This document shows, one piece after another, positions 8,750-50,540 of a stretch of 64,000 nucleotides of DNA. The position numbers and the translations under genes were made by a program. The notes under the pieces are model-generated. The model was not told the DNA's origin and ran no database searches. It was given only the letters and a program-made list of their open reading frames with translations. Source of the stretch: Actinomycetota bacterium (lineage in GTDB: Bacteria > Actinomycetota > JAHEXW01); assembly GCA_041658625.1 (NCBI GenBank), contig JBAZZW010000001.1, forward strand, positions 761,760 to 825,759, given 5' to 3'. Positions within the stretch are counted from its first letter, which is position 1. Each line of letters begins with the position of its first letter.

Positions 8750-8770
8750 TTGAAAGTTTTGGAGGTCAAG

Positions 8771-9232
8771 TTGTCAGAGACACTAGTTGGCATTGTGATG
8801 GGCAGCAAGTCGGATATGCCCGTTATGGAGACGGCGAAAGAGGTCCTTGACGAGTTGGGAGTCGCCAGCGAAGTTAAGGTCATGTCCGCCCACCGTCAGC
8901 CGGAAATGGTTCGTGAATACGCTTCGGCGGCTGAGAAGCGCGGACTTCTGGCTATTATTTGCGGCGCCGGTATGGCGGCGCACCTGGCCGGAGCCGTCGC
9001 CGCGGGCACAACCTTACCGGTCATCGGCGTCCCCATCAAAACGGGCGCCCTGGACGGTATGGACGCCCTGTTATCAACAGTCATGATGCCGACCGGCGTC
9101 CCGGTGGCGACCGTCGCCATCGACGGCGCCAAGAACGCGGCTTACCTGGCGGCGGAAATCGTCGCCAATAACCGTCCGGAGATCCGGGAGAATCTGAAAG
9201 CGATGCGAGAGAAACAAGCGGGAGGCGTATAG
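8771..9232 (+). CDS. purE: 5-(carboxyamino)imidazole ribonucleotide mutase
   Basis: [14 protein letters not shown] and [10 protein letters not shown] motifs. TTG at 8771 is preceded by GGAGG at 8761-8765. The ORF track's alternative start is 8750. Confidence 0.9.
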
Positions 9233-9235
9233 GCT

Positions 9236-10531
9236 ATGATCGACCGTTACTGTCTACCCGAAATGAAGGCGGTCTGGAGCGAGGAGAACAAGTACCGCAA
9301 ATGGCTTGACGTGGAGATCGCCGCCTGCGAAGCCCACGCCGAGCTGGGTGTAATCCCCCGCGACGCGCTGGCGGCTATTAAGAAGAACGCGGACTTCGAC
9401 GTGCCGAGGATTCTGGACATAGAAGACGAGGTCCAGCACGACGTTATCGCCTTCCTGACCTGCGTCAACGAATATGTCGGTTCGGCCGGCAAGTATATCC
9501 ACTACGGTATGACAAGTTCCGACGTGGTCGATACCGGGCTGTCGCTGACGATGCGCGAGGCCATGGACATAATCATCCAGAAAGCCGCGGCCTTCTCCGC
9601 GTTATTGCGGAAACAGGCTGAAAAATATAAGAACACCATCATGATCGGCCGTACCCACGGCGTCCACGCCGAGCCGATAACCTTCGGACTGAAGCTTCTT
9701 ATCTGGCATAACGAGATGGAGCGGAACTTGGATCGCTTGCGGGCGGCGCGTGAAGACATAAACGTCGGCATGATTTCAGGTGCCGTCGGCACCTACGCCA
9801 ATATCGACCCGCGTGTCGAGCAAATGGTCTGCAAGAAATTGGGACTTACACCTGAAGCTGCTTCCAACCAGGTGATTCAACGCGACCGGCACGCGGAGTA
9901 CATGGTGGCACTGGCCCTTACCGCCTCCAGCTTGGATAAATTCGCGACGGAGATTCGCGCTCTGCAGAAAACGGAAGTACGCGAGGTCGAAGAGCCGTTC
10001 GGCAAAGGCCAGAAAGGCAGCTCGGCCATGCCGCATAAGAAGAACCCGGTCATCTGCGAGCGCGTCTGTGGTTTGGCGCGGTTGGTGCGGACCAATTCCT
10101 TGGCGGCCATGGATAACGTGGCGCTGTGGCACGAGCGGGATATCTCGCACAGTTCGGTCGAGCGTGTAATCGTTCCCGACAGCACGCTGGCCTTAGACTA
10201 TATGCTGGAAAAATTCACCTTCGTCATCAGGGAACTGGCCGTATACCCGGAGAACATGCAAAATAATCTGGGCGCGACGCGAGGCTTGATTTTCTCCCAG
10301 CGTGTGCTGCTGGCCTTGATCGCCAAGGGTGTGTTGCGCGAGGACGCTTACCGGATCGTACAAAGGAACGCCATGGCGGTTTGGTCCGGCGATGACGATT
10401 TCAAAGCGTTTCTTATGAAAGACCAAGACGTTACCGACGTCTTGAAACCGGAAGAACTGGAACCGTTGTTCGACGCCGGCTACTATGTCCGCCACGTCGA
10501 CGAGATCTTTAATAGAAAAGTGACGCGGTAG
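9236..10531 (+). CDS. purB: adenylosuccinate lyase
   Basis: Fumarate-lyase signature GSSAMPHKKNP and N-terminus MIDRYCLPEM. 431 aa. Confidence 0.95.
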   Translation: MIDRYCLPEMKAVWSEENKYRKWLDVEIAACEAHAELGVIPRDALAAIKKNADFDVPRILDIEDEVQHDVIAFLTCVNEYVGSAGKYIHYGMTSSDVVDTGLSLTMREAMDIIIQKAAAFSALLRKQAEKYKNTIMIGRTHGVHAEPITFGLKLLIWHNEMERNLDRLRAAREDINVGMISGAVGTYANIDPRVEQMVCKKLGLTPEAASNQVIQRDRHAEYMVALALTASSLDKFATEIRALQKTEVREVEEPFGKGQKGSSAMPHKKNPVICERVCGLARLVRTNSLAAMDNVALWHERDISHSSVERVIVPDSTLALDYMLEKFTFVIRELAVYPENMQNNLGATRGLIFSQRVLLALIAKGVLREDAYRIVQRNAMAVWSGDDDFKAFLMKDQDVTDVLKPEELEPLFDAGYYVRHVDEIFNRKVTR

Positions 10532-10565
10532 ATATTAGTTAGAACCTAGACCGTGAGATTATTAC

Positions 10566-11025
10566 GACTCCCTCGCCGTGACCGGTTCGGGAGTCAGATA
10601 AAAGACTCCCTCTCTCTTGAGGGGAGAGGGTTGGGGTGAGGGTGCAAATTCCTTGACAACCAAGCAACACAAGACTAGTCAAGCCAAACGTCTCCGTGAC
10701 AACCAAGCAGACGCGGAAACAAAAGTCTGGACGCACCTTCGTGACAAACGGCTTGACGGTCTGAAGTTTCGCAGGCAACAGCCTATCGGGCCATATATAG
10801 TAGACTTTGCCTGTCTTGATAAAAGGCTCATTATTGAAATAGATGGCGGGCAACACAATCAAGAATCGGTTGACTTGGAGCGGGACAAATGGTTAACCGA
10901 ACAGGGCTATTTAATATTGAGGTTCTGGAACAACGATGTGTTCCAGAACACCAACGGGGTATTAGAAACGATTAGGGAGGCAAGCGCCACCCTCCCCTAA
11001 GTCCCCTCCCCTCAAGGGAGGGGGA
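10566..11025 (+). repeat. 460-bp repeat unit carrying a DUF559 gene (copy 2)
   Basis: Paralogous to 8290-8749. Sits in the purB-purC intergenic region. Confidence 0.85.
10617..11000 (+). CDS. DUF559 (Vsr-like endonuclease fold) domain protein, second copy
   Basis: Protein is near-identical to the 8302-8724 product (AKRLRDNQADAETKVWTHLRDKRL..., IIEIDGGQH, LRFWNNDV). Start uncertain. Confidence 0.75.
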   Translation: MRGEGWGEGANSLTTKQHKTSQAKRLRDNQADAETKVWTHLRDKRLDGLKFRRQQPIGPYIVDFACLDKRLIIEIDGGQHNQESVDLERDKWLTEQGYLILRFWNNDVFQNTNGVLETIREASATLP

Positions 11026-11042
11026 ATGATTAAGGAGCATGA

Positions 11043-11768
11043 ATGCAAGTTCAGGACGTTAAACAGGGCGAAATGATATATGAAGGCAAAGCGAAGATCG
11101 TTTACGCGACGGACAATCCGGCGCTCCTGATACAGCACTTCAAGGACAGCGCGACGGCCTTCGACGGCAAGAAAAAAGGCGAGATCAAGGATAAGGGCGT
11201 AGCTAACGCCGCGATTTCGACAAAGCTGTTCAGGATGCTGGAAGAAGAGGGCGTCGCGACGCATTTTGAGGGTATGTTGAACGATCGCGACATGTTGATC
11301 GACAACCTAGACATGATCAAGCTGGAGGCTATAACCAGGAATATCGCCGCCGGCAGCCTGGCCAAACGGCTTGGATACGAGGAAGGCACGCCGTTGAAGA
11401 AACCCGTCGTCGAGTTTTATTACAAGCGCGACGACCTGGGCGACCCCATCATCACCTGCCAGCACGTCATGGAGCTGGGCTTGATCGACGAGCCCGGATT
11501 CAAATATATCCGGGACCTGTCGTTCAGAATCAACGACATTTTGACCGGGTATTTCGACAGCATCGGACTAAAGCTGATCGACATGAAGATGGAATTCGGC
11601 TACGACCAGGAAGGCAACATCGTGTTGGGCGACGAGATCAGTCCGGACACCTGCCGCTTCTGGGACAAAGAGACGAATGAGAAATTGGACAAGGACCGTT
11701 TCCGCCGCGATCTTGGCGGCGTCGAAGAGGCCTACGAAGAGGTATTAAGGAGAGTAACAGGCTCATGA
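11043..11768 (+). CDS. purC: phosphoribosylaminoimidazole-succinocarboxamide (SAICAR) synthase
   Basis: YEGKAKIVY N-terminus and LIDMKMEFG, SPDTCRFWD motifs. 241 aa. Confidence 0.95.
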   Translation: MQVQDVKQGEMIYEGKAKIVYATDNPALLIQHFKDSATAFDGKKKGEIKDKGVANAAISTKLFRMLEEEGVATHFEGMLNDRDMLIDNLDMIKLEAITRNIAAGSLAKRLGYEEGTPLKKPVVEFYYKRDDLGDPIITCQHVMELGLIDEPGFKYIRDLSFRINDILTGYFDSIGLKLIDMKMEFGYDQEGNIVLGDEISPDTCRFWDKETNEKLDKDRFRRDLGGVEEAYEEVLRRVTGS

Positions 11769-28131: not shown

Positions 28132-28290
28132 CCTTATTTCCATGAATCAGTGTTATACTTAAGCAGTAGGTTTTTTGATTGAGCTATTGGTTACCACTTC
28201 TAGGATTTTCCTTCGTCCTTTAAACCCCTGGTTCCTTTGACGAGCCTCCGCCTTCAACCGAAGGCAATGATTGTGAGGGGAGGAGAGAAT

Positions 28291-28599
28291 ATGGGAACCA
28301 GACTCTATGTAGGAAATCTATCCTACGACACCACATCCGATCAGCTCAAAGAGCTGTTCGCAACCAGTGGCGTAGTCGCGTCAGCGGACGTGGTTATGGA
28401 TCGTCAGACCGGCCGCAGCAAGGGCTTCGCGTTCATTGAAATGGGCAGCGAAGAAGCGGCGACAACGGCTATCACGGCGATGAACGAGAAAGAGCTCGAC
28501 GGTCGTAAGCTCAACGTGAACGAGGCTAAGCCTCGCGAAGAGCGCACATCCGGCGGCGGCAGCTACGGAAGCGGCAATTACAGCAGCAAACGCTTCTAG
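28291..28599 (+). CDS. RRM-type RNA-binding protein with Gly/Ser-rich tail
   Basis: RNP2 LYVGNL and RNP1 KGFAFIEM. ATG at 28291 is preceded by GGAGGAG. Paralog of 50232-50540. Confidence 0.9.
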   Translation: MGTRLYVGNLSYDTTSDQLKELFATSGVVASADVVMDRQTGRSKGFAFIEMGSEEAATTAITAMNEKELDGRKLNVNEAKPREERTSGGGSYGSGNYSSKRF

Positions 28600-30376: not shown

Positions 30377-30907
30377 ATGAATAAAGAAATCACATCAGTC
30401 GAACTAAAGAGCATTGCGGGTATGGTTCATTTTATCCGCGACCAACGTGTTATGTTGAGCATGGATTTAGCAGAACTCTACGGCGTCGAAACTAAAGTCT
30501 TAATGCAAGCGGTCAAAAGAAATATTGACCGATTCCCACCCGATTTTATGTTTCAACTGAATGATGAAGAATATTCAATCTTGAAGTCACAATTTGTGAC
30601 TTCAAGTTGGGGAGGGGCTCGGCGAGCGAACCCATATGCATTCACTGAGCAAGGCATAGCGATGCTTTCTGGCATATTGAACAGCCCACGTGCCGTTGCT
30701 GTAAATATTGCGATAATGCGCGCTTTTGTTCAAATGCGAAGAGTGCTTGAACAAAACGCTGAGCTTCTCAGCAAGATTGATGATCTGGAGCATAAGTACT
30801 CAGACCACGATGAGAAAATCCATGTGATATTTGCTGCAATCCGAGAGCTTATGACTCCTCCGGAGACGCCCAGACGTCCGATTGGATTTGGCGAAAACGC
30901 GCAATAG
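30377..30907 (+). CDS. ORF6N-domain DNA-binding protein
   Basis: IRDQRVMLSMDLAELYGVETKVLMQAVKRNIDRFPPDFMFQL...NPYAFTEQGIAMLSGILNS is the ORF6N pattern. Confidence 0.8.
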   Translation: MNKEITSVELKSIAGMVHFIRDQRVMLSMDLAELYGVETKVLMQAVKRNIDRFPPDFMFQLNDEEYSILKSQFVTSSWGGARRANPYAFTEQGIAMLSGILNSPRAVAVNIAIMRAFVQMRRVLEQNAELLSKIDDLEHKYSDHDEKIHVIFAAIRELMTPPETPRRPIGFGENAQ

Positions 30908-31335
30908 CGCGGACAATCCCGCCCCCATATTTCCCTCCTATGAATTCCTTCTACAAATATTCTTCGAGCGAGCGTAGCGAGTGGAGAAGTTCCCTCTCCC
31001 CCGCGGGCCTGCCTGCCGGTAGGCAGGGAACTGACACGCTACTTTCTTTACCAACTAATTCACGTGCGTGGTGGATCAAGAACCAAGAACAGAAACAAAA
31101 ACAGGAACAAAATCCCCTCAGATTGATTGTCCCCACCCACCCAATTGATTGGCGACCCCGGTCACGTTCATTACCGTTGAAAAACGTAGTACTTGAGCTT
31201 GACAAATATAGGCAATGACATCGTAACGTAATTGTTGTTAAACAATAATGACATTACGAGGATATATGATTGTCCCCACCCACCCCTATTAAGAGACTCG
31301 CCGAATAAAATGCTCGAATTCTCATAAGACAAGGT

Positions 31336-31374
31336 CACAGTTTTAAGGTCACAATTTGTGACCTTAAAACTGTG
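31336..31374. repeat. 39-nt perfect palindrome (19-nt arms, 1-nt centre)
   Basis: cacagttttaaggtcacaa t ttgtgaccttaaaactgtg. Same core as the palindrome inside the ORF6N genes at 30580-30606 and about 31655-31683. Confidence 0.9.
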
Positions 31375-31557
31375 AACAGCAGAGAAAGTCATGATTGAGG
31401 TACCAATTTGGCACCTCAAAGACTGTGAACTGCGAGAAGAAAAGGTGGTCGCAAAATGCGACCACGTATAAACTCACATGCCGCTAGCAGAAACAGAAAC
31501 CAAACCCTAGGCAGCCAGAGAACTCAGACGAAAATCGTCATCCTAAGGAGGCGCGCA

Positions 31558-31954
31558 GGCGTTGACACAAAAGTCCTTATGCAGGCGGTCAGGCGCAACA
31601 TAGAAAGGTTCCCGAATGATTTCATGTTCCAGCTTACTGAGCAGGAGATTAAAGATTTAAGATCACAAATTGTGACTTTAAATCTTGCTACAACGAGATG
31701 ATCAAACCCATACGCGTTTACAGAGCAGGGTGTCGCAACCGAAGCAGAAACCAAAACCAGAAGCAGGCAGAGAAGCGTCATCCCGAGCGACCCCACAAAT
31801 GCTGCGAGGGAACTGACACGCCACCCACTATCCAGGAAGAATCGTGTATGGTGGATCAGACCACGACGAAAAGATCCAAGTGATATTCGCGGCAATCCGC
31901 GAACTAATGACTCCGCCGGAACCATCCAGGCCACCGATTGGATTTGGTGATTAA
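31558..31954 (+). pseudogene. degraded ORF6N-domain gene
   Basis: Encodes GVDTKVLMQAVRRNIERFPNDFMFQL...LRSQIVT, then a stop and frameshift, then NPYAFTEQGVA (other frame), then about 120 nt of unrelated repeat, then HDEKIQVIFAAIRELMTPPEPSRPPIGFGD-stop. Collinear with 30377-30907. Confidence 0.7.
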
Positions 31955-32323: not shown

Positions 32324-32769
32324 TGCCCGTTCAGCCACAGGACAAGCCGTTCATCAGACAGTCTTATCGTCCGCTCTTCGGACCGACGCTTGTTCCGACG
32401 ATTACTCTGTCTTTACGCCTTTCCCGCCGGCCCTCCAAGATCATCACTGTCGACTGTCTGTTGGATTCAGGCGCGGACCAATCAATTATGAGTTTTGAAA
32501 TCGCCGAAGCATTGGGTTTGCGGCGAAACCAAGCCTCAGTAGAACGCGGTGAGGGATTCGGTGGCCAGTTCAGGATGATGACTTTTCAGGGAGAAGACTT
32601 CATTGGTTCTGTGTCTGATGACGGATCGGAACATCGCTTTGGTATGAGTCCAAGATTTCATGAACCGGGGATGAAGTCGATGCAGGTCCTAGGCCGTTTG
32701 GATTTCTTTAAGGCTTTCTCGCATATCGAAATCCACGAGCGCGGGAAGTATCTAGATTTATATCCATAA
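32323..32769 (+). CDS. retropepsin-like aspartic protease
   Basis: LLDSGADQSIM is the D(S/T)GA active-site motif of the retroviral-type aspartyl protease fold. ATG at 32323 is used rather than the tracked 32182, which would overlap the whole upstream gene. Confidence 0.7.
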   Translation: MPVQPQDKPFIRQSYRPLFGPTLVPTITLSLRLSRRPSKIITVDCLLDSGADQSIMSFEIAEALGLRRNQASVERGEGFGGQFRMMTFQGEDFIGSVSDDGSEHRFGMSPRFHEPGMKSMQVLGRLDFFKAFSHIEIHERGKYLDLYP

Positions 32770-32803
32770 ACATATATTTTTCCTCCCTCGACCTCCAATC
32801 CGC

Positions 32804-32977
32804 TTCTCCATGGTTCTTGTTCTTTCACCCTGCCGTTAATCATTTCTCCCTAGTTGCCAATCTTCTTCTCCCCGACCCCCGACTTGTCTCCCTGTCTCCA
32901 GATCATTCTCCCCTGAATCTCTGATTCTTCTCCCCATCCACTAAGTTCTTTCTCCCTAACCCCCGAAACATTCTCCC
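32804..32977 (+). repeat. phased array of TTCTCCC heptamers (reverse complement of GGGAGAA), period about 21 bp
   Basis: TTCTCCC or a 1-mismatch variant at 32804, 32844, 32866, 32886, 32906, 32928, 32950 and 32971. Spacings from 32844 onward are 22, 20, 20, 22, 22 and 21 bp. Confidence 0.85.
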
Positions 32978-33422
32978 TTGTTTAACGACTGGCGCAAGCG
33001 GATGCTACTTATAGTCCGTGGTAATATATTCCTCTTTTCCATGATTATGTGGGCGGAGGGGATATGCCAAATTACACGGATGAACAGAAACAAGAGGCAG
33101 ACAGAGAAACGTCACCCTGGGGCGAAGGCAGCCAGAGAATCGTCATCCCGAGTGACCCCGCAGATGCTGCGAGGGAACTCAGACGGAGCTTTCACTCCAG
33201 CTAAAATCGTGCCCTGAAGATCAAACATGAATCCAGGAAGAATCTTGCGTGGTGGAGCAGAAACAAGAACATCAAATGATTCGTGTTTGGTGGATCGGAA
33301 ACAAGAACCAGTAGGTTGAAAGGCAAGACTTGACGCCTTTAATAGAAGTAATTCGGCGACGCAATAAAGACAGAATGAACTTTTCTTGTTAGTATTTGCA
33401 TTAATACGGCGCGTGTCTTGGT

Positions 33423-33446
33423 TTGATCAAATATATGTTTGATCAA
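33423..33446 (+). promoter_or_regulatory. two TTGATCAA palindromes 16 bp apart upstream of the five-gene operon (candidate operator/promoter region)
   Basis: ttgatcaa at 33423-33430 and 33439-33446, in AT-rich DNA about 60-80 nt upstream of the ATG at 33504. Confidence 0.3.
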
Positions 33447-33503
33447 TTTAGACAAAGAAGACAAGTTGGCTAAAGCTTGTTAGTTTAAGAATATTGGAGT
33501 TGC

Positions 33504-35615
33504 ATGAGTCTTCGAGATATTGAGTTTAAGCCTTCATACTCGTCTGATTCAGATGATATTCTCAATGAGTTTTATATTCCCGCGCTTCAAGAATCAGTTC
33601 TATATAGAAGATTGGCCGGCTACTATTCCTCGACAAGTCTAGCTATTGCGGCAAAAGGAATTCTCGGGCTTCTTAAGAGTGGCGGGTCAATGCAGATGGT
33701 GATCTCTGCAGAGCTAAATCAGCAGGATATGGATGCAATACGATCGGCTACGGAGACGCCAGAACAAATATTTGCACAAGTAATTATTGATGACCTAAAT
33801 AATCTTAAAGACTTACTAGTGTATGAACATATAAAGGCACTTGGGTGGCTTCTCGCAAATAATAGACTCGAAATAAAAGTCGCTGTACCCCGCGCCGATG
33901 GCATTTTTCATCCAAAAATAGGTGTTTTCAACGACCGGCAAGACAATATAGTAACTTTTAGCGGCTCAATAAATGAGAGTGCCATGGGCTGGAAAGGGAA
34001 TGATGAGTTTTTTAAATCGTTTGTAAGTTGGAAACCAGAGGATTCATCAAGACTTCATGCAGACATTGATGAGTTTAATAAGTACTGGAACAACACAGCA
34101 AAGCGAAGTCAAATTGTTGATGCTCCAATTGCCTTAAGGAACAAGATTGTTTCTTTGGCGCCATCTAGTTCAAACGCCAAAGACCTTGAAGTCCTATACA
34201 AATCACTCCAAGAAGAAGAACATATAGATTTACAAAAAGATGAGGAAAAACCGCCAATAAAACTTCGTGATTATCAGAAAGATGCAGTGCTTAGTTGGCA
34301 AAATAACAAGAATATTGGAATATTTGAAATGGCTACTGGAACAGGAAAGACACGGGCCGCCTTAGCTTGCATGGATAGCTTGATCCGAAAAGACAAGACA
34401 CAGAATTTATTCATTGTTGTATGTCCATCGAATCAACTAATCGTCCAATGGATTGACCAGGTAGATGAATTGGTCGCGATTGACGGACCTGTAATTATTG
34501 CAGATAGCACAAATCCAAAATGGAAAGATGATGTAGCTGATAGGCTTGTCGACTTCAACCAAACGCGATATAGAAATATCTTGATTGTGACAACATACAG
34601 TACTTTCTCATCAAGCCGATTCCACAAAATGGTTCAAGAGGCTAGTGGAGAATCAGTCTTCCTAATTGCAGATGAAGTCCATAATCTAGGGGCTCCAAAG
34701 TTTAAAAAGGGAATCGACGAGTATTATAAGAAAAGGCTCGGCTTAAGCGCAACACCTAAGCGCTGGTTCGACGATACTGGCACAAGTGAGATTTATGATT
34801 ACTTTGGCGGCGAAGTCTTTTCCTTTAGCTTGGGCGATGCTGTTACACAGATAAATCCAGAAACCGAAAGAACATATCTTACCCCATATAGATATTTCCC
34901 TTCTTTCATATATCTAACAGACCAAGAGACTAGCGAATACCTAGAGCTGTCAAAAACGATTGCTCGACTTCAGGGCATTAAATCAGATTCAGGGGACGAG
35001 CAAGTAACCTCAATTGAAAGATTGCTCTTCAAAAGAGCCAATATAATAAAAAACGCGGTTAACAAACTCCAAGCGCTCGATGAAATAATCAGAAATATCA
35101 ATCCAGATCTTACAGGCACCCTTATTTATGTAAGTCCCCAACAGATTCAAGAGGTAATGCAGATGCTTGGCGCCTCATCGATTCGTGCGCAAAGATTCAC
35201 GATGGAGAAAGGCACAAAGAAAGAGAAAAAGTATGGTGGCAAATCAGAAAGAAGCTATCTTTTGGAAAACTTCTCGAAAGGTAAATTTCAGGTCTTGGTT
35301 GCTATGAAATGCTTAGATGAGGGAGTTGATATTGCCGAAGCAAGAACTGCAATCTTTCTATCAAGCTCAGGTAACCCAAGAGAATACATTCAAAGAATAG
35401 GAAGAGTACTAAGAAGGTGCTCGGGAAAAGAAAGCGCATCTATTTATGACATTATTGCTTTGCCCAAGAAAGGGCAAGTACCAAAAGAAATGAAAGATAT
35501 TGAAGAAAAGATGATTAGGAGAGAGCTGAAAAGGTATATTGAAATTGCGAGGACCGCACTAAACAACGGCGAGGCAATTGCGGCAATTTCAAAGATATAT
35601 GAACAGTATAAGTAG
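33504..35615 (+). CDS. HKD (PLD-family) nuclease domain fused to an SF2 DEAD/DEAH-type (type III Res-like) helicase
   Basis: N-terminus: YRRLAGYYSSTS, then a single HKD-like motif FHPKIGVFND...FSGSINES (H at 33909). Helicase: LRDYQKDAV, Walker A MATGTGKT, motif II IADEVHNLG, motif III LSATPKR, motif VI QRIGRVLRR. Confidence 0.85.
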   Translation: MSLRDIEFKPSYSSDSDDILNEFYIPALQESVLYRRLAGYYSSTSLAIAAKGILGLLKSGGSMQMVISAELNQQDMDAIRSATETPEQIFAQVIIDDLNNLKDLLVYEHIKALGWLLANNRLEIKVAVPRADGIFHPKIGVFNDRQDNIVTFSGSINESAMGWKGNDEFFKSFVSWKPEDSSRLHADIDEFNKYWNNTAKRSQIVDAPIALRNKIVSLAPSSSNAKDLEVLYKSLQEEEHIDLQKDEEKPPIKLRDYQKDAVLSWQNNKNIGIFEMATGTGKTRAALACMDSLIRKDKTQNLFIVVCPSNQLIVQWIDQVDELVAIDGPVIIADSTNPKWKDDVADRLVDFNQTRYRNILIVTTYSTFSSSRFHKMVQEASGESVFLIADEVHNLGAPKFKKGIDEYYKKRLGLSATPKRWFDDTGTSEIYDYFGGEVFSFSLGDAVTQINPETERTYLTPYRYFPSFIYLTDQETSEYLELSKTIARLQGIKSDSGDEQVTSIERLLFKRANIIKNAVNKLQALDEIIRNINPDLTGTLIYVSPQQIQEVMQMLGASSIRAQRFTMEKGTKKEKKYGGKSERSYLLENFSKGKFQVLVAMKCLDEGVDIAEARTAIFLSSSGNPREYIQRIGRVLRRCSGKESASIYDIIALPKKGQVPKEMKDIEEKMIRRELKRYIEIARTALNNGEAIAAISKIYEQYK

Positions 35616-35624
35616 GGGGCGTTC

Positions 35625-35822
35625 GTGGATAATGAAGGTATGTACGAAAAGATAATTAATGAATTGCAGAAGCAATGCAAAGACGAGCCAGAGATTGGAT
35701 TCCTGCTGATCAAATTGCTTGCAGAAGAAGCTGACCGTCCGAGAACGGCGCAGTGGAAAGCCTCATATGAGAAATTAATTAGGAGCACCAGGGATCGATT
35801 GGAAAAAGCCAATGAGAATTGA
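35625..35822 (+). CDS. small helical hypothetical protein (operon member)
   Basis: Starts 10 nt after the helicase stop (GTG 35625, or ATG 35640). Overlaps the start of the next gene by 11 nt. Shares the AT-rich composition of its neighbours. Confidence 0.5.
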   Translation: MDNEGMYEKIINELQKQCKDEPEIGFLLIKLLAEEADRPRTAQWKASYEKLIRSTRDRLEKANEN

Positions 35823-37809
35823 AAAACTAATAATGAAGAATTATCGTCAATACAGAGATGAAATATTGCACTTTAGGAGCACTTCAGAGTGCGATCTTAC
35901 TGTGTTTATTGGACGAAATGGCACTGGAAAATCTAATATTCTTAATGCCATCAACTGGTGTCTTTATAAAGAAGAGCCTCATTTGAATGATGAGTCAGTA
36001 AGTATGCCTCCAGTAACAATGGACAGTGTACTGCAGAGCCCAGATGGATCTGAGCACAGTGTATCTGTTGAGCTTTATATCGATTCTGGTGAAGGAGGGA
36101 AAATAGTTTTTAATCGGACGGCAAGGTATAAAGTCTTTAAAGAAACAGCGATGGCAAAAATTGAAATGGGTGAGCTATATAGATACGTTTCAACCTATAT
36201 GGACCTAGAAGTCCAGCATATAAAGAAGAACGGCGAGACTGACTATTTTAGCGAAGATGAAGACGTAGAGTTTTTTATTGATACATTTATCCCAAAGAAT
36301 ATTCGTGGGTTTTTTATTTTTGATGGGGAACGGCTAAGTTCGTATTTTAAAGTAGCCGTTCAGAAAAATATTAGAAGCGCCATTCTTAGCCTATCAAGAA
36401 TCGAAGTTTTAGAAACAATAAAAGATCGCCTTGGAACAATATTAACAGAATACAACCGTGAAGCTGGAAGGTATAGCCCTGAGCTTGAGGAGATAGAAAA
36501 ACAGCTTAATCAAGCTATAGAAAGAGAAAATGAAGCATCAAATATGCTTAATGAAGCGCAGGTTCAAATTGACAGCGCAAAAACTCAAATCGAAGAACAC
36601 AAGGGCGAAATTGAAGGTTGTCCTGATGCTATGAAACTTAATACTGAGCGGGATGAGTTGAAGGATAAAGTGCAATTAACAAATAAGAGGCGTGAGAAAA
36701 ACCATATTGAATATCTAAACAGTCTATTTGAGTTAGGGAAAACAGCAAATTCAAAAGCAGCGCTTACTAGCCTATTAGATATAATCAACAAGAAAATACA
36801 GAACCACGAGTTGCCACCGCCGATTGAAAATAGAAATCTTGAACAATCGCTAAAAGATGGTAAATGTGTTTTATGTGGGGTAGCAATATCTAAAGAAACA
36901 GAAAATCACATTAAGGAGACAATGAAGCAAATTTCGACATCTTCCTTTGCTGCAAGGCGACTAAGCGAATTAGAAAATCCGCTTCACAGGGTATTAGAAA
37001 AAGAGCGTGCTCTAAAAATTAATATCGCTAGTGCAATTGAAAAGATTCAGGACTGCGATAAACAGATCCAAAAAGCACAGACAAGAATCGAAGAAATTGA
37101 CCATACACTATTAGGCCATAATAAAGATTCCATCAGAGAACACCAAGAACAAATCCTGATCCTAGAGGATGTCTATATGACAAACTTGATAGCACTGGGC
37201 ACATGGAAAACAAGGCGAGACGAAATTCGAAAAGGAATACCAGACATAAAAAGAAGACGAGACGATGAAATGGAGAAACGGAAGGACATAGAAGAACTAA
37301 AAGGTCGTATCTGCGTATGCGAAACTGCTTTTGCTAAAGCTAGTGATGCAAGAGAAAGTATTTTATCCAAGACAAGGGAATACGTAGAAGAAGAAACCAA
37401 CAAAGCGTTCTCGAAACTTATGTGGAAGAAAAAGACCTATAAACGAATAAAGATAAAAGAAGACTACTCGCTGAGTGTAATCCATGTTTCAGGACAAGAA
37501 TGGTTTCCACACATGAGTGCAGCCGAAAGACAACTTCTCGTTCTTTCTTTTACGATTGCTCTCCATACGCTTGCAGGATTTGACTCACCACTCATTATTG
37601 ATACGCCGGTAGCAAGAGTTGACGACGAAAACCGGGAAAACTTTGCGGAAGCTTTTGCTAAGATTTCTCAAGCAAAGCAAGTCGTTCTAATCTTGAGCCC
37701 CACAGAGTGGTCTTCAGAGATCTCTGGTGTTCTCGATAGGTATGTTGGAGGCAAATATAGGTTAGATCTAAATGAGGAAGAAACCGAAACACGCGTTAAG
37801 GAGGCATAG
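35812..37809 (+). CDS. SMC/Rad50/DndD-like ABC ATPase with central CxxC hook
   Basis: Walker A GRNGTGKSNILNAI. About 350 aa of heptad-rich E/K/L/Q sequence. CVLCG at residues 352-355 of 665. Signature-like MSAAERQLL. Walker B/D-loop LIIDTPVARVDDENRE. Confidence 0.85.
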   Translation: MRIEKLIMKNYRQYRDEILHFRSTSECDLTVFIGRNGTGKSNILNAINWCLYKEEPHLNDESVSMPPVTMDSVLQSPDGSEHSVSVELYIDSGEGGKIVFNRTARYKVFKETAMAKIEMGELYRYVSTYMDLEVQHIKKNGETDYFSEDEDVEFFIDTFIPKNIRGFFIFDGERLSSYFKVAVQKNIRSAILSLSRIEVLETIKDRLGTILTEYNREAGRYSPELEEIEKQLNQAIERENEASNMLNEAQVQIDSAKTQIEEHKGEIEGCPDAMKLNTERDELKDKVQLTNKRREKNHIEYLNSLFELGKTANSKAALTSLLDIINKKIQNHELPPPIENRNLEQSLKDGKCVLCGVAISKETENHIKETMKQISTSSFAARRLSELENPLHRVLEKERALKINIASAIEKIQDCDKQIQKAQTRIEEIDHTLLGHNKDSIREHQEQILILEDVYMTNLIALGTWKTRRDEIRKGIPDIKRRRDDEMEKRKDIEELKGRICVCETAFAKASDARESILSKTREYVEEETNKAFSKLMWKKKTYKRIKIKEDYSLSVIHVSGQEWFPHMSAAERQLLVLSFTIALHTLAGFDSPLIIDTPVARVDDENRENFAEAFAKISQAKQVVLILSPTEWSSEISGVLDRYVGGKYRLDLNEEETETRVKEA

Positions 37810-37813
37810 GACA

Positions 37814-38224
37814 ATGACAATGATTACAAGCCCAGATAGGCTCAATATAGATAAAACTGACCGCCGACTCTACGAGCAGCTTGACAAAGAGCCGGTATTG
37901 CTGGGGAAAACCCGAGGACGAAAAGATCAGTTTCTTCTCGCTATGTCTATCGGTTATAAAAGCGGGATGAGATTGCCCATAAAGTCTAAGGAAGGTTTCG
38001 TACTTACGAAAGACCTTAATGCGGAGGACTATGCGTTAATATTTGCAGTAGCTGCAAGTGACAGTAAAAATATTGACATAATTGCCGACGACGTAGAAGT
38101 TGTTTCCATCGCGGAAGAATATGCACATGCAGGAATTAAGACATTGATTGAAAAATTAAAAGAAGTTGGTTTTGGTAGTTTTGAAAAGCAATTCGAGAAG
38201 GAGATATTTAATATCCTCGGCTAG
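37814..38224 (+). CDS. small hypothetical protein, possibly DndE-like
   Basis: ATG at 37814 is preceded by AAGGAGG (37798-37804). The tracked alternative start 37772 overlaps the ATPase gene. The DndE-like idea rests only on size, position after a DndD-like ATPase, and a loose C-terminal resemblance (EEYAHAGIKTL). Confidence 0.55.
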   Translation: MTMITSPDRLNIDKTDRRLYEQLDKEPVLLGKTRGRKDQFLLAMSIGYKSGMRLPIKSKEGFVLTKDLNAEDYALIFAVAASDSKNIDIIADDVEVVSIAEEYAHAGIKTLIEKLKEVGFGSFEKQFEKEIFNILG

Positions 38225-39557
38225 ATCGCATTTTACCCGAAAAACAATAAGAATTCTGCTCGTAGAGCCATCTTTTCCGATTCCTGCGAAAAGCAAGAAT
38301 CATAAGAACTTTCTTCCGGTTGGCTTACTTAAGATTGCTTCTTATCAAAGAACTCTAGGCAACGAAGCGCAACTTTACAGGGGCGTCCCTATTGGTTTTT
38401 TTGAGACAAGTCGTCTTGTGGCGTTTAAACCTGATGAGATTTGGATTACGTCTCTTTTTACTTATTGGTCTCCCTATGTGAAAGAAACCGTCGAGTTCTA
38501 TAAAGACCTATTTCCGAACGCAAAGATTACTGTTGGAGGTATCTATGCGTCACTAAGGCCAATTGAAGAGGTAAAACAATACACCGGTTGTGATGAAGTA
38601 TTTCAAGGTGTGATGGGAGCAGCCGAGAGTCATGAGCCCGCTTATGACTTGCTGGAATACAAAAATGGCAGCCCAATTGATTACCAGATTTTACACGCTT
38701 CTAGGGGTTGCATAAGAAACTGCGAGTTTTGTGGGACTTGGAAGATTGAGCCAGAATACAAGCCAAAGAAATCAATAGTTGATGAGATCTTTCCCGGAAT
38801 CAGAAAACTGGTTTTCTACGACAACAACCTTCTTGCTAATCCCCATATTGAAGATATTCTCAAAGAGCTTGCGGAATTAAAAAGGACTCATCGAATTCTA
38901 TGGTGCGAAAGCCAGTCTGGCTTCGATGGAAGAATCTTGAAAGAGAAACCACATCTGGCAAGAATGCTGAAGAAGGCCGGATTTCAAAATCCCCGTATTG
39001 CCTGGGACTGGGGTTATAAACAGCACGAGAGTATAAAAAAACAAATTGACATACTACTCGATGCTGGTTATAAGTCGAACCAGATATATGTTTTCGTAAT
39101 ATATAACTGGGACACGGTGTTCGAAGAAATGGAACAAAAGCGAATTAAAAGTTTCGAATGGAAGGTTCAAATTGCCGACTGTCGCTATCGACCCCTAGAT
39201 CAGATGTATGACCACTATAAAGGGAGCACCAAGGGCCAAACGAACAAGGACTATTACATTCACGAATCAGCTGGTTGGACGGACGCGTTAGTTAAACAGT
39301 ATCGGCGCAATATACGCGAACAAAACATCTGCGTCCGTTATGGGTTTGACCTGTATTCAAGAGCGTTTGAGCACAAAACTCAAGGTCAGAGTGTTCGTCG
39401 TCAGATGAAGCTATTGCCTACGCTAGACGAAAAAAAGGACTTTATGGAATCTCGCGGATACGATTTTTGGGTTCCAGATAAAATTAGGTACCCCGTTGAT
39501 GACTCGATTCAATCTGACCAAATCTCACTTGCTGTTAGTGAAAAGGTCAGGGCGTAA
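38166..39557 (+). CDS. radical SAM enzyme with N-terminal B12-binding-like (class B type) domain
   Basis: CxxxCxxC cluster motif CIRNCEFC at 38709-38732. N-terminus IRILLVEPSF...FLPVGLLKIASY resembles the Rossmann-like B12-binding domain of class B radical SAM enzymes. Exact start is uncertain (TTG codons at 38166-38181, no ATG). Confidence 0.8.
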   Translation: MVLVVLKSNSRRRYLISSARSHFTRKTIRILLVEPSFPIPAKSKNHKNFLPVGLLKIASYQRTLGNEAQLYRGVPIGFFETSRLVAFKPDEIWITSLFTYWSPYVKETVEFYKDLFPNAKITVGGIYASLRPIEEVKQYTGCDEVFQGVMGAAESHEPAYDLLEYKNGSPIDYQILHASRGCIRNCEFCGTWKIEPEYKPKKSIVDEIFPGIRKLVFYDNNLLANPHIEDILKELAELKRTHRILWCESQSGFDGRILKEKPHLARMLKKAGFQNPRIAWDWGYKQHESIKKQIDILLDAGYKSNQIYVFVIYNWDTVFEEMEQKRIKSFEWKVQIADCRYRPLDQMYDHYKGSTKGQTNKDYYIHESAGWTDALVKQYRRNIREQNICVRYGFDLYSRAFEHKTQGQSVRRQMKLLPTLDEKKDFMESRGYDFWVPDKIRYPVDDSIQSDQISLAVSEKVRA

Positions 39558-39562
39558 ATCAT

Positions 39563-39655
39563 ATGTTTAGAGTATGTATACAAAACAACCAGCTCGTTTA
39601 TGAGCTATACGGCCTAACCGACGAAGCAATAACGGGGTCAAGTCTTTACTTTTAA
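39563..39655 (+). pseudogene. remnant of the C-terminal end of a type IIG / PglX-like DNA methyltransferase
   Basis: The frame encodes ...NQLVYELYGLTDEAIT... then a stop. (L)VYELYGLT(E/D)EEI is the characteristic extreme C-terminus of Eco57I/PglX-type N6-adenine methyltransferases. No upstream body remains. Confidence 0.45.
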
Positions 39656-39739
39656 CATTCTCTTAAAACCTGGTTTCTAGGTCTCGTCTTCTAAAAGTCA
39701 AGTCTGTTTTTAGTCATTTGATTCTGCTAGTCTGGCGAC

Positions 39740-39934
39740 ATGGTAAGAGCACTGCGCATCGAATACCCCGGGGCTGTCTATCACGTAATGAGCCGCGGTA
39801 ACGAAAGAAAAGCAATTGTCCGATCAAAAGAGGACCGAGAACGGTTCACTGAAGTCTTAAGAGAAGGCGCGAGTCGATTCAACATCCTGATCCACGCCTA
39901 TTCAAAGTCAAAGGGGTCAGGTCGTGCTATGTAA
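39740..39934 (+). pseudogene. 5' fragment of a RAYT/IS200-like Y1 transposase gene
   Basis: MVRALRIEYPGAVYHVMSRGNERKAIVRSKEDRERFTEVLREGASRFNILIHAY parallels the first ~56 aa of the full-length gene at 40002-40880, then diverges into a REP-like sequence and stops. Confidence 0.7.
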
Positions 39935-40965
39935 CCTTTTAAGTTGGTGAAGTTGATGCACTACCAACTTATGAATCTGAACAGGCACGGCAACCTTGCA
40001 ATTACCCTTCATTGAGATATTTTTCTGTTTCTGAGATCACTCGGCTTAAATAGGCGCGGTGAAGACCTAGATGGTTTGCGACTTCTCGCTGCTTGTATCC
40101 GAAATCGTAGATTGCGCTATGTGCCTTTAGGTTTCTATCTGATATTGACAATCCGGCCGGGAGCAAGGCCGAAAGTGGGGGCCGGTCAGCGTATCTGTGT
40201 GATCGAGCGAGTTCTTTTATCTCGTCTGCTTCCCAAAAGACGTTTGAGAGCTTATCGATGAAGGTGTCGCTCCCTAAGACACAGCCACCGCGGATATTCT
40301 CGAACGGCTTGTCGGAGCCGGCCTCAGGGGTCAAGACGAATTCCTGGTACCGCTTTTTGGCCAGCCTCTTCTTGCCCGCGAACTGGGAGAGGACCCAATC
40401 AGTCGCGAGAAAACCGCCATCGTTATCTGACAGGCCGGCAATCGCGCGGTAGCTACTCCATCTGTAATCGGCCGGATGCTCGACGAGGCCCGCCCGGATC
40501 GGATTCAAAACGATATATCGGCAAAGACACAAGAGATACTCGTCGCGTTCGACGAGGATAGCCTTGTATCGACCCTGATAGACATGACCGACTGTTTTGT
40601 TTCGGGCGTTATAACGAGTTGTATAGACCCCGTTGATGTAATGCATGACCTCAGCGAGGTTGCCGTCAGGAGTCTCAACGAGAAGGTGGTAATGGTTTGT
40701 CATTAGGCAGTAGCCGTGGATGAGAACGTTAAAGCGTTTTGCGGCTTCTTCCAGAATTACCAGAAAAGCCTCACGGTCCTTATTTGTTCTGACGATAGAC
40801 TTCCGGCCGTCGCCGCGGCTCATAACGTGGTAGACGGCGCCGGGGTACTCGATGCGTAGAGGTCGTGCCATGACGAACACGCTATCAAATTATGGATGAA
40901 AGAAAAAGACTTGACTTATAACGGACGGAGTCAATAATTAACCTTACAAAGCACGACCTGACCCC
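39913..40965 (-). mobile_element. RAYT-type unit: Y1 transposase gene bracketed by inverted 15-nt REP-like sequences
   Basis: ggggtcaggtcgtgc at 39913-39927 and its exact reverse complement gcacgacctgacccc at 40951-40965 flank the transposase CDS. Confidence 0.7.
40002..40880 (-). CDS. IS200/REP-associated tyrosine (Y1, HUH) transposase-like protein with C-terminal DnaA-C-like HTH
   Basis: YHVMSRG, HUH-type MTNHYHLLVETP and catalytic-Tyr region VYQGRYKAILV. C-terminus GYKQREVANHLGLHRAYLSRVI is HTH-like. Confidence 0.8.
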   Translation of the reverse strand: MFVMARPLRIEYPGAVYHVMSRGDGRKSIVRTNKDREAFLVILEEAAKRFNVLIHGYCLMTNHYHLLVETPDGNLAEVMHYINGVYTTRYNARNKTVGHVYQGRYKAILVERDEYLLCLCRYIVLNPIRAGLVEHPADYRWSSYRAIAGLSDNDGGFLATDWVLSQFAGKKRLAKKRYQEFVLTPEAGSDKPFENIRGGCVLGSDTFIDKLSNVFWEADEIKELARSHRYADRPPLSALLPAGLSISDRNLKAHSAIYDFGYKQREVANHLGLHRAYLSRVISETEKYLNEG

Positions 40966-41032
40966 TAAGCCGACCCCGGTCAGATAGTACATAAAGAAAA
41001 ATAGAATTACTCTATTGAAGGGGAGGAGCATT

Positions 41033-41704
41033 ATGACACAGACGATTGATTTAAAGAAAGAACAGCAAGCTTCGATTGCCAGGCCGCGGTACAAATATTC
41101 TATAATGGCGCGGAGTTTTTTTATAACCATGGATATCCTGACGGGCCGTAAGGTGACTTTGTCAAAGGCCAAGTTGCTGGAGACTCTGGCCTGCATTCCT
41201 TACCGTGAATGGGAGATCCGGCAGTATATCCGGCTGACCCGACGGTATCGAAAGTGGGAATTCGTCGATTGGGCCAACGGCATAAAACAATGGAGCCGAA
41301 ACGCCCAGGACAATGAATACACCCACCTTCTGATCGTCAACGAGAAGATGAAAGAAGACGGGATGAAAGACGCCTGGTACCTGTTCCCGTTAATCCCATT
41401 TATCATGGTCATGGTCTATGTCCCCTTCGCGAAGACGTTAGCATTATTCCGTACTCGGCGAGCCTTTCTTTTTAACGCCGAATTCGAGGACCACGCCGAG
41501 CACGTATACGCCCAGTTCGTTGGGGAGCATCCGGAGTGGGACGAACAAAAAGTAGATAACGATCTGGTGAAAGCTTACGCGGATGTCGAAACCTGGGGCG
41601 ATGTTTTCCGCCGCGTTGGTTTGGACGAACGCGACCACAGGAACGCAAGCTTTGTCGCTTGCGGCAAACCGGAGTTTGTCGTTGAATACGAAGGGATGCC
41701 TTAA
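41033..41704 (+). CDS. alternative-oxidase-like di-iron carboxylate protein (AOX/PTOX family, tentative)
   Basis: LLETLACIPY, NEKMKE, AEFEDHAEHVY and DERDHRN are spaced like the four AOX iron-binding helices (LET, NE.MH, E.EE..H, DE..HR). ATG at 41033 follows GGGGAGGAG. Confidence 0.55.
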   Translation: MTQTIDLKKEQQASIARPRYKYSIMARSFFITMDILTGRKVTLSKAKLLETLACIPYREWEIRQYIRLTRRYRKWEFVDWANGIKQWSRNAQDNEYTHLLIVNEKMKEDGMKDAWYLFPLIPFIMVMVYVPFAKTLALFRTRRAFLFNAEFEDHAEHVYAQFVGEHPEWDEQKVDNDLVKAYADVETWGDVFRRVGLDERDHRNASFVACGKPEFVVEYEGMP

Positions 41705-41751
41705 AAGGGTCAAGTCTGTTTCTAGTCCTTTGGTTCTGCTAGTCTAGCGCT

Positions 41752-42258
41752 ATGGATAAGTCACAAAAACGAGAGGAACACCGGGCCACTCGGGAAGTCA
41801 AGAGGCAGGCGCACGAAGATGAAATGGTTAAGCTGCGCGGCAAGCGGGAGGGCAAGAAATGGGCCTTCTCTCTCGGCCTGATGATTCCATTTCTGCTAAT
41901 CGTCGTATCTTTCGCCGCTGTCGCGTACGTTTTGTTAGTACTCCCCGGACGCTCCATTAACCAAACAGACACTATGGCCGCCAAGGCGATACTTAAAGCC
42001 GCCGCTGTTGCCGCCGACCAATTCGCTTCGGACCATAACAATTCTTATGGAGGCATGACAGCGGGCGATCTGAAAGCCATCGACTCTAAGATTAACTGGG
42101 CTGACGGCGCTCCTAATCCCGGCCAGGTCGGTATCGTCTCGGCCGAAGAAACTACGTTCAAATTGGTCTATAAGGATTCGACCGGCGGCGAATTCCAAGC
42201 GGCGCGCGATAAACCGGGGGCGCCATCTTTCACAGACGTCAGCGGCAACCCGATATAG
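41752..42258 (+). CDS. hypothetical membrane-anchored protein, pilin-like architecture
   Basis: Basic N-terminus, one TM helix, then AAKAILKAAAVAADQFASDHNNSYGGMTAGDLKAID. Similar layout to 52304-52672. Confidence 0.45.
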   Translation: MDKSQKREEHRATREVKRQAHEDEMVKLRGKREGKKWAFSLGLMIPFLLIVVSFAAVAYVLLVLPGRSINQTDTMAAKAILKAAAVAADQFASDHNNSYGGMTAGDLKAIDSKINWADGAPNPGQVGIVSAEETTFKLVYKDSTGGEFQAARDKPGAPSFTDVSGNPI

Positions 42259-50231: not shown

Positions 50232-50540
50232 TTAGTAGCGCTTGCTGCCGTATCCGCCGCCGTAGCTACGGTTATTGGACGACGTACGCTCTTCGCGAGG
50301 CTTGGCCTCGTTAACGTTGAGCTTACGACCGTCAAGCTCCGTCTCGTTCAACGCCGAGATAGCCGCTGCCGCCGCCTCTTCGCTGCCCATTTCAATGAAC
50401 GCGAAGCCCTTGCTGCGACCGGTCTGACGGTCCATTACCAGGTCCGCCGACGCGACTACACCGCTGGCCGAGAAAAGCTCTTTAAGCTGATCGGCAGTTG
50501 TGTCGTAGGAAAGGTTTCCCACATACAGTCTAGTTCCCAT
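50232..50540 (-). CDS. RRM-type RNA-binding protein
   Basis: MGTRLYVGNLSYDTT..., KGFAFIEM. About 85% identical by eye to the 28291-28599 product. Confidence 0.9.
   Translation of the reverse strand: MGTRLYVGNLSYDTTADQLKELFSASGVVASADLVMDRQTGRSKGFAFIEMGSEEAAAAAISALNETELDGRKLNVNEAKPREERTSSNNRSYGGGYGSKRY

Follow-up and report, generated by a model that had tools for sequence, protein, structure and literature searches.

A cobalamin-type radical SAM gene at the end of a PbeABCD operon, a candidate DNA self-marking partner

Analyzing a 64-kb stretch of DNA from an Actinomycetota bacterium (contig JBAZZW010000001.1, positions 761,760 to 825,759; the whole stretch of 64,000 nucleotides is called the window below), we found that five genes on its + strand, at 33504-39557, form a horizontally acquired restriction-like defense system of the PbeABCD (CxC ABC-ATPase/DndE-anchored) type, the last gene of which encodes a cobalamin-type radical S-adenosylmethionine (rSAM) enzyme. 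Genes 1-4 are the already described PbeABCD, alias the CxC ABC-ATPase/DndE system; what is new, within the literature searched, is only gene 5 and the association of its whole family with restriction-type modules. On balance we favor the reading that the rSAM enzyme is the DNA self-marking enzyme of a Pbe system. This functional reading comes from genomic context, from which we infer the DNA substrate, the role as a self-mark and the nature of the product. A prediction made earlier from the sequence (the original prediction) had pointed out the operon and proposed a restriction-like system with a radical-made self-mark; its observation is confirmed and its interpretation is partly supported, the self-mark being the reading to which the context evidence leans.

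The five-gene operon

Calling open reading frames (ORFs) confirmed the predicted same-strand operon, with the following genes and motifs, the motifs being read from the translations:

33504-35615, + strand: pbeA ORF, 703 aa
33909-33935, + strand: HKD catalytic motif of PbeA, HPKIGVFND (H136-x-K), then GSIN
35625-35822, + strand: putative pbeB ORF, 65 aa, GTG start
35812-37809, + strand: pbeC ORF, 665 aa
36865-36876, + strand: CVLC hook of PbeC, residue 352, in the middle of the coiled coil
37814-38224, + strand: pbeD ORF, 136 aa, extendable back to 37772
38166-39557, + strand: cobalamin-type rSAM ORF, 463 aa, TTG start
38709-38732, + strand: CX3CX2C radical SAM cluster motif CIRNCEFC, invariant in family alignments

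Genes 1 and 2 are 9 nt apart, genes 2 and 3 overlap by 11 nt, genes 3 and 4 are 4 nt apart, and the ORFs of genes 4 and 5 overlap by 59 nt. The G+C fraction of the operon is 0.401 against 0.535 in the remaining window, in agreement with the predicted AT-richness, and flanking island segments lie in between (0.49-0.50). Judged by their sequences all five genes look intact; genes 1 and 3 cover their PADLOC profiles over the full length, and an identical copy of the cassette is held by a 7.9-kb contig of another sequencing run. Scanning 32700-40100 for sigma-70 promoters and terminators revealed no convincing operon promoter or terminator, the sites being fewer than in shuffled sequences.

PADLOC identified gene 1 as PbeA (5.2e-224, residues 2-691). 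Against NCBIfam TIGR04095 dnd_restrict_1 (DNA phosphorothioation system restriction enzyme) the protein scored 405 bits, under the cutoff of 600, and its Pfam matches were ResIII, Helicase_C and a weak PLDc_2. Carrying the HKD motif as well as the helicase motifs GTGKT and DEVH, PbeA is predicted to be a single-HKD, phospholipase D (PLD)-type nuclease domain fused to a superfamily 2 (SF2) helicase. Gene 3 was identified as PbeC (3.3e-114) with DndD second (7.6e-46); its score against the NCBIfam DndD model was 134 bits, under the cutoff of 246, and Pfam reported AAA_23 and SMC_N. The presence of Walker A (GRNGTGKS, residue 34), the signature SAAE (residue 569) and Walker B (LIIDT, residue 594, within LIIDTPVARVD) accompanies the hook, and the predicted product is an ABC ATPase of the CxC/DndD-like clade with a long coiled coil and a central Cys hook. 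Gene 4 matched NCBIfam TIGR04062 dnd_assoc_4 under cutoff (3.3e-7) and carries the precomputed Pfam assignment PF27807 DNA_S_mod_dnd_assoc_4. Its AlphaFold2 (AF2) model (predicted local distance difference test, pLDDT, 83) consists of two strand-helix-helix units and a C-terminal helix, and the top Foldseek matches were the DndE structures 4lrv and 7x4e, with a non-significant E of ~0.8 and a target TM-score (TMt) of 0.54-0.66. Gene 4 models as PbeD, a DndE-cognate predicted DNA-binding protein with two ribbon-helix-helix units. The ORF in the pbeB slot, 65 aa, agrees in position and size with PbeB (66 aa in Haloterrigena jeotgali), and in related loci the slot is filled by an ORF of 60-79 aa. 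Its product matched no profile in PADLOC, Pfam or NCBIfam and tblastn found similarity in one locus only; PbeB is a small, fast-evolving protein, and absent similarity is expected for such a component. PADLOC returned nothing for genes 2, 4 and 5.

The domain calls of the original prediction (HKD nuclease/SF2 helicase, small protein, zinc-hook DndD-like ATPase, small protein, B12 radical SAM) proved right by profiles and Foldseek, and the motifs it named are all there: HKD H136, GTGKT/DEVH, Walker A, the CVLC hook, LIIDTPVARVD and CIRNCEFC. That the composition matches no known system was also claimed, which fails for genes 1-4, these being PbeABCD with PADLOC models matching genes 1 and 3, and stands for gene 5; an existing named system model is thus matched in part, through PADLOC PbeA and PbeC.

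PbeABCD of H. jeotgali A29 is a four-gene cassette in which PbeB has 66 aa and PbeD 152 aa, as described by Xiong et al. (2019; PMC6459918). All four of these genes are found, identically ordered and of nearly equal size, in the window operon, which has a putative PbeB of 65 aa and a PbeD of 136-150 aa. It differs from the DndCDEA-PbeABCD locus of that archaeon in lacking dndCDEA, in having a cobalamin rSAM gene after pbeD, and in being an AT-rich, acquired cassette in a bacterial-like host. According to Xiong et al., replication of virus is blocked by pbeABCD only in the presence of the DndCDEA phosphorothioate (PT) mark, and inactivity of solitary pbe clusters was raised as a possibility. 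A paper from the Aravind laboratory (PMC10853773) describes systems that combine an HKD nuclease with SF2 helicase and a small, disordered protein with a zinc-hook ABC ATPase of the CxC type and a DndE of clade 2. It proposes that ATPase and DndE together form a core that scans DNA and to which PT enzymes or cytosine methylases are recruited; as partners it describes PT enzymes, cytosine methylases of the C5 or N4 kind, and MTaX1. The window operon has this core in common, from the HKD nuclease with SF2 helicase through the small protein and the Cys-hook ABC ATPase to the clade-2 DndE, and a radical SAM partner is mentioned neither in the available text of that paper nor in its available supplement.

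Neither dnd genes nor a DNA methyltransferase turned up in the window on inspection of its ORFs and in Pfam searches of the island ORFs, and in tblastn searches of the window the Dam-like, N4/N6, HsdM and Dcm queries reached a best E of 0.14. Given that published Pbe activity needs a DNA mark and that the window is without dnd genes or a methylase, the slot of the modification partner is empty. We infer that gene 5, the only candidate modifying enzyme in the window, fills this position.

Three known systems were considered for the window and rejected. Dnd/Ssp was set aside with no DndC/SspD PAPS-reductase-like enzyme or cysteine desulfurase present in operon or window, and DISARM with no Drm protein, DrmA, the DUF1998 protein DrmB and DrmE included, among the 25 best PADLOC matches for PbeA and PbeC and with no PADLOC match for the other three proteins. 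For the rSAM enzyme, viperin was dismissed on the lack of a PADLOC match and on structural neighbors that are cobalamin rSAMs and not viperin.

The radical SAM enzyme and its family

The conserved rSAM protein begins at 38250 (IRILLVEP) and is about 415-435 aa long. An alignment of 20 diverse family members contains ~130 invariant columns, and the window protein retains every invariant residue. Whereas searching PDB sequences with the family profile gave nothing real, the AF2 model of the protein (pLDDT 90.7, predicted template modeling score, pTM, 0.87) was matched by Foldseek to TokK (4e-9), CysS (1e-8) and OxsB (5ul2, 4e-7), and its N-terminal domain alone matched the cobalamin-binding domains of 1y80, 4jgi, CarH and MetH; matches extended to the B12 domains of TokK and OxsB. 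By its modeled fold, gene 5 encodes a compact cobalamin-type (class B) radical SAM enzyme predicted to bind cobalamin. In common with the class B enzymes TokK, CysS and OxsB it has an N-terminal Rossmann cobalamin-type domain and a CX3CX2C partial TIM barrel; the best Foldseek E values to class B enzymes run from 4e-9 to 2e-6 with a query TM-score (TMq) of ~0.5 and only 11-15% identity. At about 415 aa versus 620-730 aa, the window enzyme is without the C-terminal domains of these three, and its context is DNA restriction, not antibiotic biosynthesis. TokK and CysS lengthen alkyl groups through methylation of sp3 carbons, and OxsB removes hydrogen from the deoxyribose moiety of dAMP, dADP or dATP. 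The predicted isoelectric point of the rSAM protein is 8.7, versus 5.1-6.1 for the four Pbe proteins.

A word-indexed search returned 2,483 rSAM homologues (>2,400 clusters at 90% identity). The best 120 of them, 57-80% identical, come from Thermoplasmata, Methanophagales, Odinarchaeia, Stahlbacteria, Nitrospirota, Tissierellaceae, Koleobacter and others, and are named only "cobalamin-dependent protein" or "Fe-S oxidoreductase". An exhaustive profile search yielded 154 clusters at 50% identity with E <= 1e-30 and 907 with E <= 1e-10. The family is spread among anaerobes, including methanogens, Asgard, Bathyarchaeia, Chloroflexota, Clostridia, Omnitrophota, the Candidate Phyla Radiation (CPR) and DPANN. 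In a simple identity tree the rSAMs linked to GHKL ATPases form a separate, shorter clade, and the clade of the window enzyme (>=58% identity) mixes Pbe, DISARM, ParB/SNF2, PglZ/HerA and DGQHR contexts. One family member of 797 aa (P0238) has an inserted intein with a LAGLIDADG homing-endonuclease domain.

To survey the context, 80 rSAM loci were taken from species-representative genomes, the neighboring ORFs were clustered and the clusters annotated. At 7 of the 80 the gene lies at a contig end, leaving 73 with informative flanks, and in all 73 it is within one of a few recurrent restriction-type modules:

26 loci: PbeA-(B)-C-D-rSAM, two of them cut at PbeD
26 loci: GHKL (HATPase_c_3) ATPase, a conserved ~330-aa protein and rSAM
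7 loci, plus 2 at contig edges: DISARM DrmA (7e-112)-DrmB-DrmC-DrmE-rSAM, or a variant with a 1,100-aa protein
4 loci: ParB-like/SNF2 operon and rSAM
3 loci: PglZ-like/HerA-type operon and rSAM
3 loci: NurA/HerA-type operon and rSAM
1 locus: DGQHR (DndB/DpdB-like) protein alone and rSAM
1 locus: MutH-type endonuclease and C5 cytosine methylase (3e-64), a type II restriction-modification (R-M) pair, with the rSAM after the methylase gene

The rSAM is mostly the last gene, at -35 to +90 nt from the previous gene on the same strand; in Methanobrevibacter it is divergent from pbeA or upstream of it. The five-gene cassette recurs in at least 24 species-level genomes of many phyla; there the rSAM immediately follows PbeD, often with an overlap, and identity of the cassette proteins across phyla is 33-65%. 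A single rSAM gene may accompany two restriction modules, a GHKL pair and Pbe (L044, L074), or be found amid two Pbe cassettes (L031, L073). Among 30 loci (24 with complete Pbe and 6 of DISARM type; 72 flanking ORFs), just 5 had a DNA methylase family within 6 kb, which counts in favor of a self-marking role, and no Dnd family occurred among the families seen at least twice in the flanks. Two side observations concern these loci: one (L024, about 8700-11290) contains two tandem rSAM paralogues of 396 and 459 aa, and the ~330-aa protein whose gene separates those of GHKL ATPase and rSAM (L040 9011-10000, L071 2499-3494), which may be a nuclease or a specificity factor, weakly matches NCBIfam NF047698, 'PP_RS20740 family'.

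Canonical class 2 DISARM (DrmE-DrmA-DrmB-DrmC-DrmMII) has the methylase gene drmMII after drmC. Homologues of the window rSAM end DrmA-DrmB-DrmC-DrmE operons elsewhere, at the position of the C5 methylase DrmMII, and DISARM and the window operon are alike in joining a modification gene, in the window a putative one, to a PLD nuclease and a helicase.

The cassette was also approached from the Pbe side, with six close PbeA relatives (44-47% identity) picked for long contigs, the rSAM being no criterion. One of them has PbeABCD with an rSAM of the window clade (L093), and in two, PbeABCD adjoins a sister-clade rSAM and a GHKL ATPase (L096, L097). The co-occurrence of the five genes in other genomes, which the original prediction had named as a test, is thereby borne out by the species-level genomes above, by this locus (L093) and by the cultured Koleobacter methoxysyntrophicus. 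The latter (CP059066.1) carries the same five-gene cassette (708, 75, 657, 145 and 418 aa), flanked by fragments of integrase and transposase; a methylase is absent within 10 kb. Its rSAM (L086 10001-11257) bears the NCBI name '2-hydroxyethylphosphonate methyltransferase', which is probably an over-annotation from general class-B rSAM similarity, since no phosphonate genes are nearby.

Some family members are fused to DNA-acting domains. In a 777-aa protein (P0274) a full C5-cytosine DNA methylase (PF00145, 5e-57) is joined to the rSAM; it is a single ORF in the NCBI assembly GCA_054640675.1, among small same-strand genes including a ParM-like gene. Another (P0272) combines a Dcm-like N-terminus with the rSAM, two (P0271, P0279) have C-terminal Dcm motifs after it, and one (P0244) has the rSAM with a ParB-like domain. 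The fusion clade, a sister to the window clade, has the same order of motifs: LLVEP, TSLFTY, GGIxASL, RGCxxxCxFC, DNN, GxDxR, RxAWD/RFAFD, YN, RYxPL. Copies are also found in viral contigs. An IMG/VR contig (L083) holds a lone rSAM, 73% identical to a Pbe-linked archaeal rSAM, immediately upstream of a terminase large subunit (phrog_38, 2e-93). A second one (L082) has PbeD and rSAM with no PbeA or PbeC; PHROGs gave nothing for the ORFs flanking the pair, and this contig is viral only by its IMG/VR label. More distant relatives occur in Marinitoga camini virus 1, adjoining HerA and a NurA-like gene, in Dulem virus 39, two genes past a cytosine methylase, in a Methanofastidiosa virus and in Clostridium phage phiCT453B. 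The homologues of phiCT453B, Dulem virus 39 and vir520, at 22-30% identity, were not retained as strong evidence and lend weak support only.

Role of the radical SAM enzyme

We liken the rSAM to the methylases of R-M systems because it is swapped among unrelated nuclease/helicase machines at their methylase position, sometimes serves two machines, is fused or adjacent to C5 methylases and DNA-binding domains, and is acquired alone by viruses. If it marks DNA, a PbeC dimer (zinc-hook ABC ATPase) together with PbeD (the double ribbon-helix-helix DndE cognate) would scan DNA and define target sites, a step suggested by the published model for DndD/DndE and CxC/DndE pairs. PbeC/PbeD would recruit the rSAM, which would place a covalent mark on host DNA by means of a 5'-deoxyadenosyl radical and cobalamin. 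The mark would most likely be, conjecturally, a C-methylation or other functionalization of a C-H bond; a candidate is extension of a pyrimidine 5-methyl group (of thymine, or of 5-methylcytosine where Dcm is fused or adjacent), the Dcm fusions being the reason to consider the pyrimidine 5-methyl a possible substrate in the fusion clade. PbeA, as HKD nuclease and SF2 helicase, would then act on unmarked DNA by cleavage or by blocking replication, and PbeB may be a small regulator. A wider generalization is more tentative and, to us, somewhat doubtful: that the family installs a hitherto undescribed radical-derived DNA modification (for instance by alkylation or another functionalization of a pyrimidine 5-methyl or a sugar C-H) as an interchangeable self-mark, a route for anaerobes to 'hypermodified' DNA, and that phages captured the gene as protection for their DNA. 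The unrelated restriction machines it might serve would, with the same reservation, be Pbe, DISARM, GHKL/MORC-like, ParB-SNF2, HerA-type and type II.

Radical SAM enzymes reported to act on thymine, or modified thymine, in DNA are the phage M6 gp53 isomerase and spore photoproduct lyase (PMC8989533), gp53 being the first rSAM found installing a DNA modification according to Lee et al. 2021 (PMC8989533). Both are precedents for radical reactions at bases in DNA; they are, however, not cobalamin-dependent, belong to other rSAM families, and serve phage hypermodification or repair with no restriction self-mark.

A number of observations weigh against a self-marking role. Defense islands mix unrelated genes, and adjacency alone cannot tell whether a gene is a modifier, an effector or a sensor. 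Viral DNA was not cleaved by Pbe in the archaeal system (PMC6459918). The rSAM is not always a methylase replacement, as some of its loci hold ordinary methylases: type I HsdM, or Dam-like or N4/N6 enzymes, DNA methylase families lying within 6 kb in 5 of the 30 Pbe and DISARM-type loci. Three of the six close PbeA relatives (L092, L094, L095) are without an rSAM and have a PbeD-AlbA_2 fusion instead; evidently Pbe can exist without the rSAM. The Dcm and ParB fusions belong to the sister clade, ~27-31% identical to the window rSAM, and the substrate of that clade may differ from that of the window clade. Gene 5 itself stays below the Pfam gathering thresholds, with 24.5 bits for B12-binding (gathering 32.1) and 24 bits for Radical_SAM (gathering 29.5), and its cobalamin binding is predicted from fold similarity only. 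Finally, the stretch from the pbeD stop (38224) to the conserved rSAM N-terminus (38250) contains no ATG, GTG or TTG; lacking a canonical start codon there, translation must start at an in-frame TTG within pbeD (38166, 38172 or 38181) or be coupled otherwise, and the start is uncertain.

OxsB (5ul2, E 4e-7), among the best structural matches of the window enzyme, contracts the sugar of deoxyadenosine phosphate, which raises the alternative that the rSAM belongs to the defense system and makes a small antiviral modified nucleotide or nucleoside, with no DNA mark. Chain-terminator-making radical SAMs are established defense effectors, pViperins producing 3'-deoxy-3',4'-didehydronucleoside triphosphates (ddhNTPs), and OpnA of Ophion has been proposed to act likewise (bioRxiv 2025.09.30.679545). 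The Ophion rSAM was rejected as the same thing, being viperin-related and part of a different system (bioRxiv 2025.09.30.679545). We consider a small-molecule product unlikely: the partner modules already have nuclease/helicase effectors and would otherwise have no self/non-self mark, no nucleotide kinase/phosphatase partner of the OxsA kind is conserved near the rSAM, and both the C5 methylase and ParB-like fusions and the viral contig holding only rSAM and the DNA-binding PbeD point to DNA, not to free nucleotides. The same context evidence, a DNA-linked defense role, would also suit a radical effector or editor of invading DNA that damages it or alters or removes phage modifications that block the nuclease, and spore photoproduct lyase and phage M6 gp53 do work on thymine derivatives in DNA. 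Such a weapon seems distinctly unlikely to us, given that viral copies beside a terminase (L083) and in phage replication modules fit protective modification genes and hardly an anti-phage weapon, and that the position held by the rSAM is that of the methylase, both in DISARM and in a type II R-M pair.

Peptide C-methylases are numerous among cobalamin radical SAM enzymes, and the operon has in PbeB a small, fast-evolving ORF, so the enzyme might modify a protein or peptide of the system, for instance by C-methylation of PbeB in the manner of PoyC, a maturase of RiPPs (peptides made on ribosomes and modified after translation). This is improbable, as the rSAM is 50-65% identical across phyla while conservation of PbeB is undetectable, the rSAM also accompanies DISARM, GHKL, ParB/SNF2 and type II R-M modules, all without PbeB, and its fusions are to DNA-acting domains. 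Least probable, and hardly credible, is an inert Pbe remnant orphaned of its PT partner with the rSAM an unrelated neighbor: the window indeed has no dnd genes, Xiong et al. raised inactivity of solitary pbe as a possibility (PMC6459918), and fragments of transposase and ORF6N genes show the island decaying around the operon, but all five ORFs and their catalytic motifs are intact, a second sample contains an identical copy, and a five-gene order kept in many phyla at 33-65% identity requires selection on the whole cassette.

The CxC systems were reportedly first described by Krishnan et al. in 2020. Our literature search, which did not cover Krishnan 2020, turned up no publication that connects a cobalamin rSAM with Pbe, DISARM or restriction, nor was such a link in the available supplements of PMC6459918 and PMC10853773. 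If the rSAM does mark DNA, this would account for the way in which "solitary" Pbe systems, and DISARM-like ones without a methylase, distinguish self from invader, and would add a third kind of modifier to the CxC/DndE scanning-core model. Known restriction self-marks in prokaryotes are few, namely base methylation, phosphorothioation, 7-deazaguanines and few others, and cobalamin/radical-SAM marking of cellular DNA would be a chemically new class. In anaerobic microbiomes such a modification could influence sequencing signals, barriers to transformation and the dynamics between viruses and hosts. The cultured K. methoxysyntrophicus with the same cassette makes a self-marking role directly testable, and should it fail, the window still has a standard, described PbeABCD system.

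The surrounding island and minor observations

The three relatives without an rSAM carry a PbeD of ~300 aa with an SLFN_AlbA_2 domain (L092 11224-12135, L094 11238-12203, L095 11247-12140), in two of which (L092 and L095) a recognizable PF27807 region is fused to SLFN_AlbA_2. This PbeD-AlbA_2 form is another Pbe variant, which we did not find described in the available portions of PMC6459918 and PMC10853773.

In the window, Pfam assigned the island ORFs to Fic (three genes), PIN, ORF6N, PIG-L, Y1_Tnp, AOX-like and metallophosphatase families, and the ORFs beyond the island are purine-biosynthesis and other housekeeping genes. The defense-island context that had been predicted was accordingly upheld for Fic, PIN, ORF6N and Y1_Tnp. 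A methyltransferase C-terminal remnant reported immediately downstream of the operon is not one: 39736-39840 is an inverted 105-nt copy, 75% identical, of the 5' end of the Y1 transposase gene, which itself lies further downstream:

40002-40880, - strand: Y1 (IS200-like/RAYT-like) transposase gene

A 56-nt direct repeat, 82% identical, flanks the transposase region (39688-39743 and 41700-41755) and may be one edge of the inserted island. The ORF6N-domain gene at 30377-30907 has a second, degenerate copy ~1 kb downstream (repeat 30800-30894 / 31856-31950, 81%), and several related palindromes lie around the two copies, including a perfect 20+20-nt palindrome at 31335-31375. Elsewhere, purE-purB is bracketed by two ~90%-identical ORFs of 127-140 aa (8302-8724 and 10617-11000), which by eye have the look of DUF559/Vsr-like endonuclease domains. 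Two closely similar genes for small glycine-rich RNA-binding proteins (RNP-1-like, by eye) are found at 28237-28599 (+ strand) in the island and at 50232-50540 (- strand) in the housekeeping part. The ORF at 41015-41704 has a weak Pfam match to alternative oxidase (AOX; 4e-5) in a genome that is otherwise anaerobe-like.

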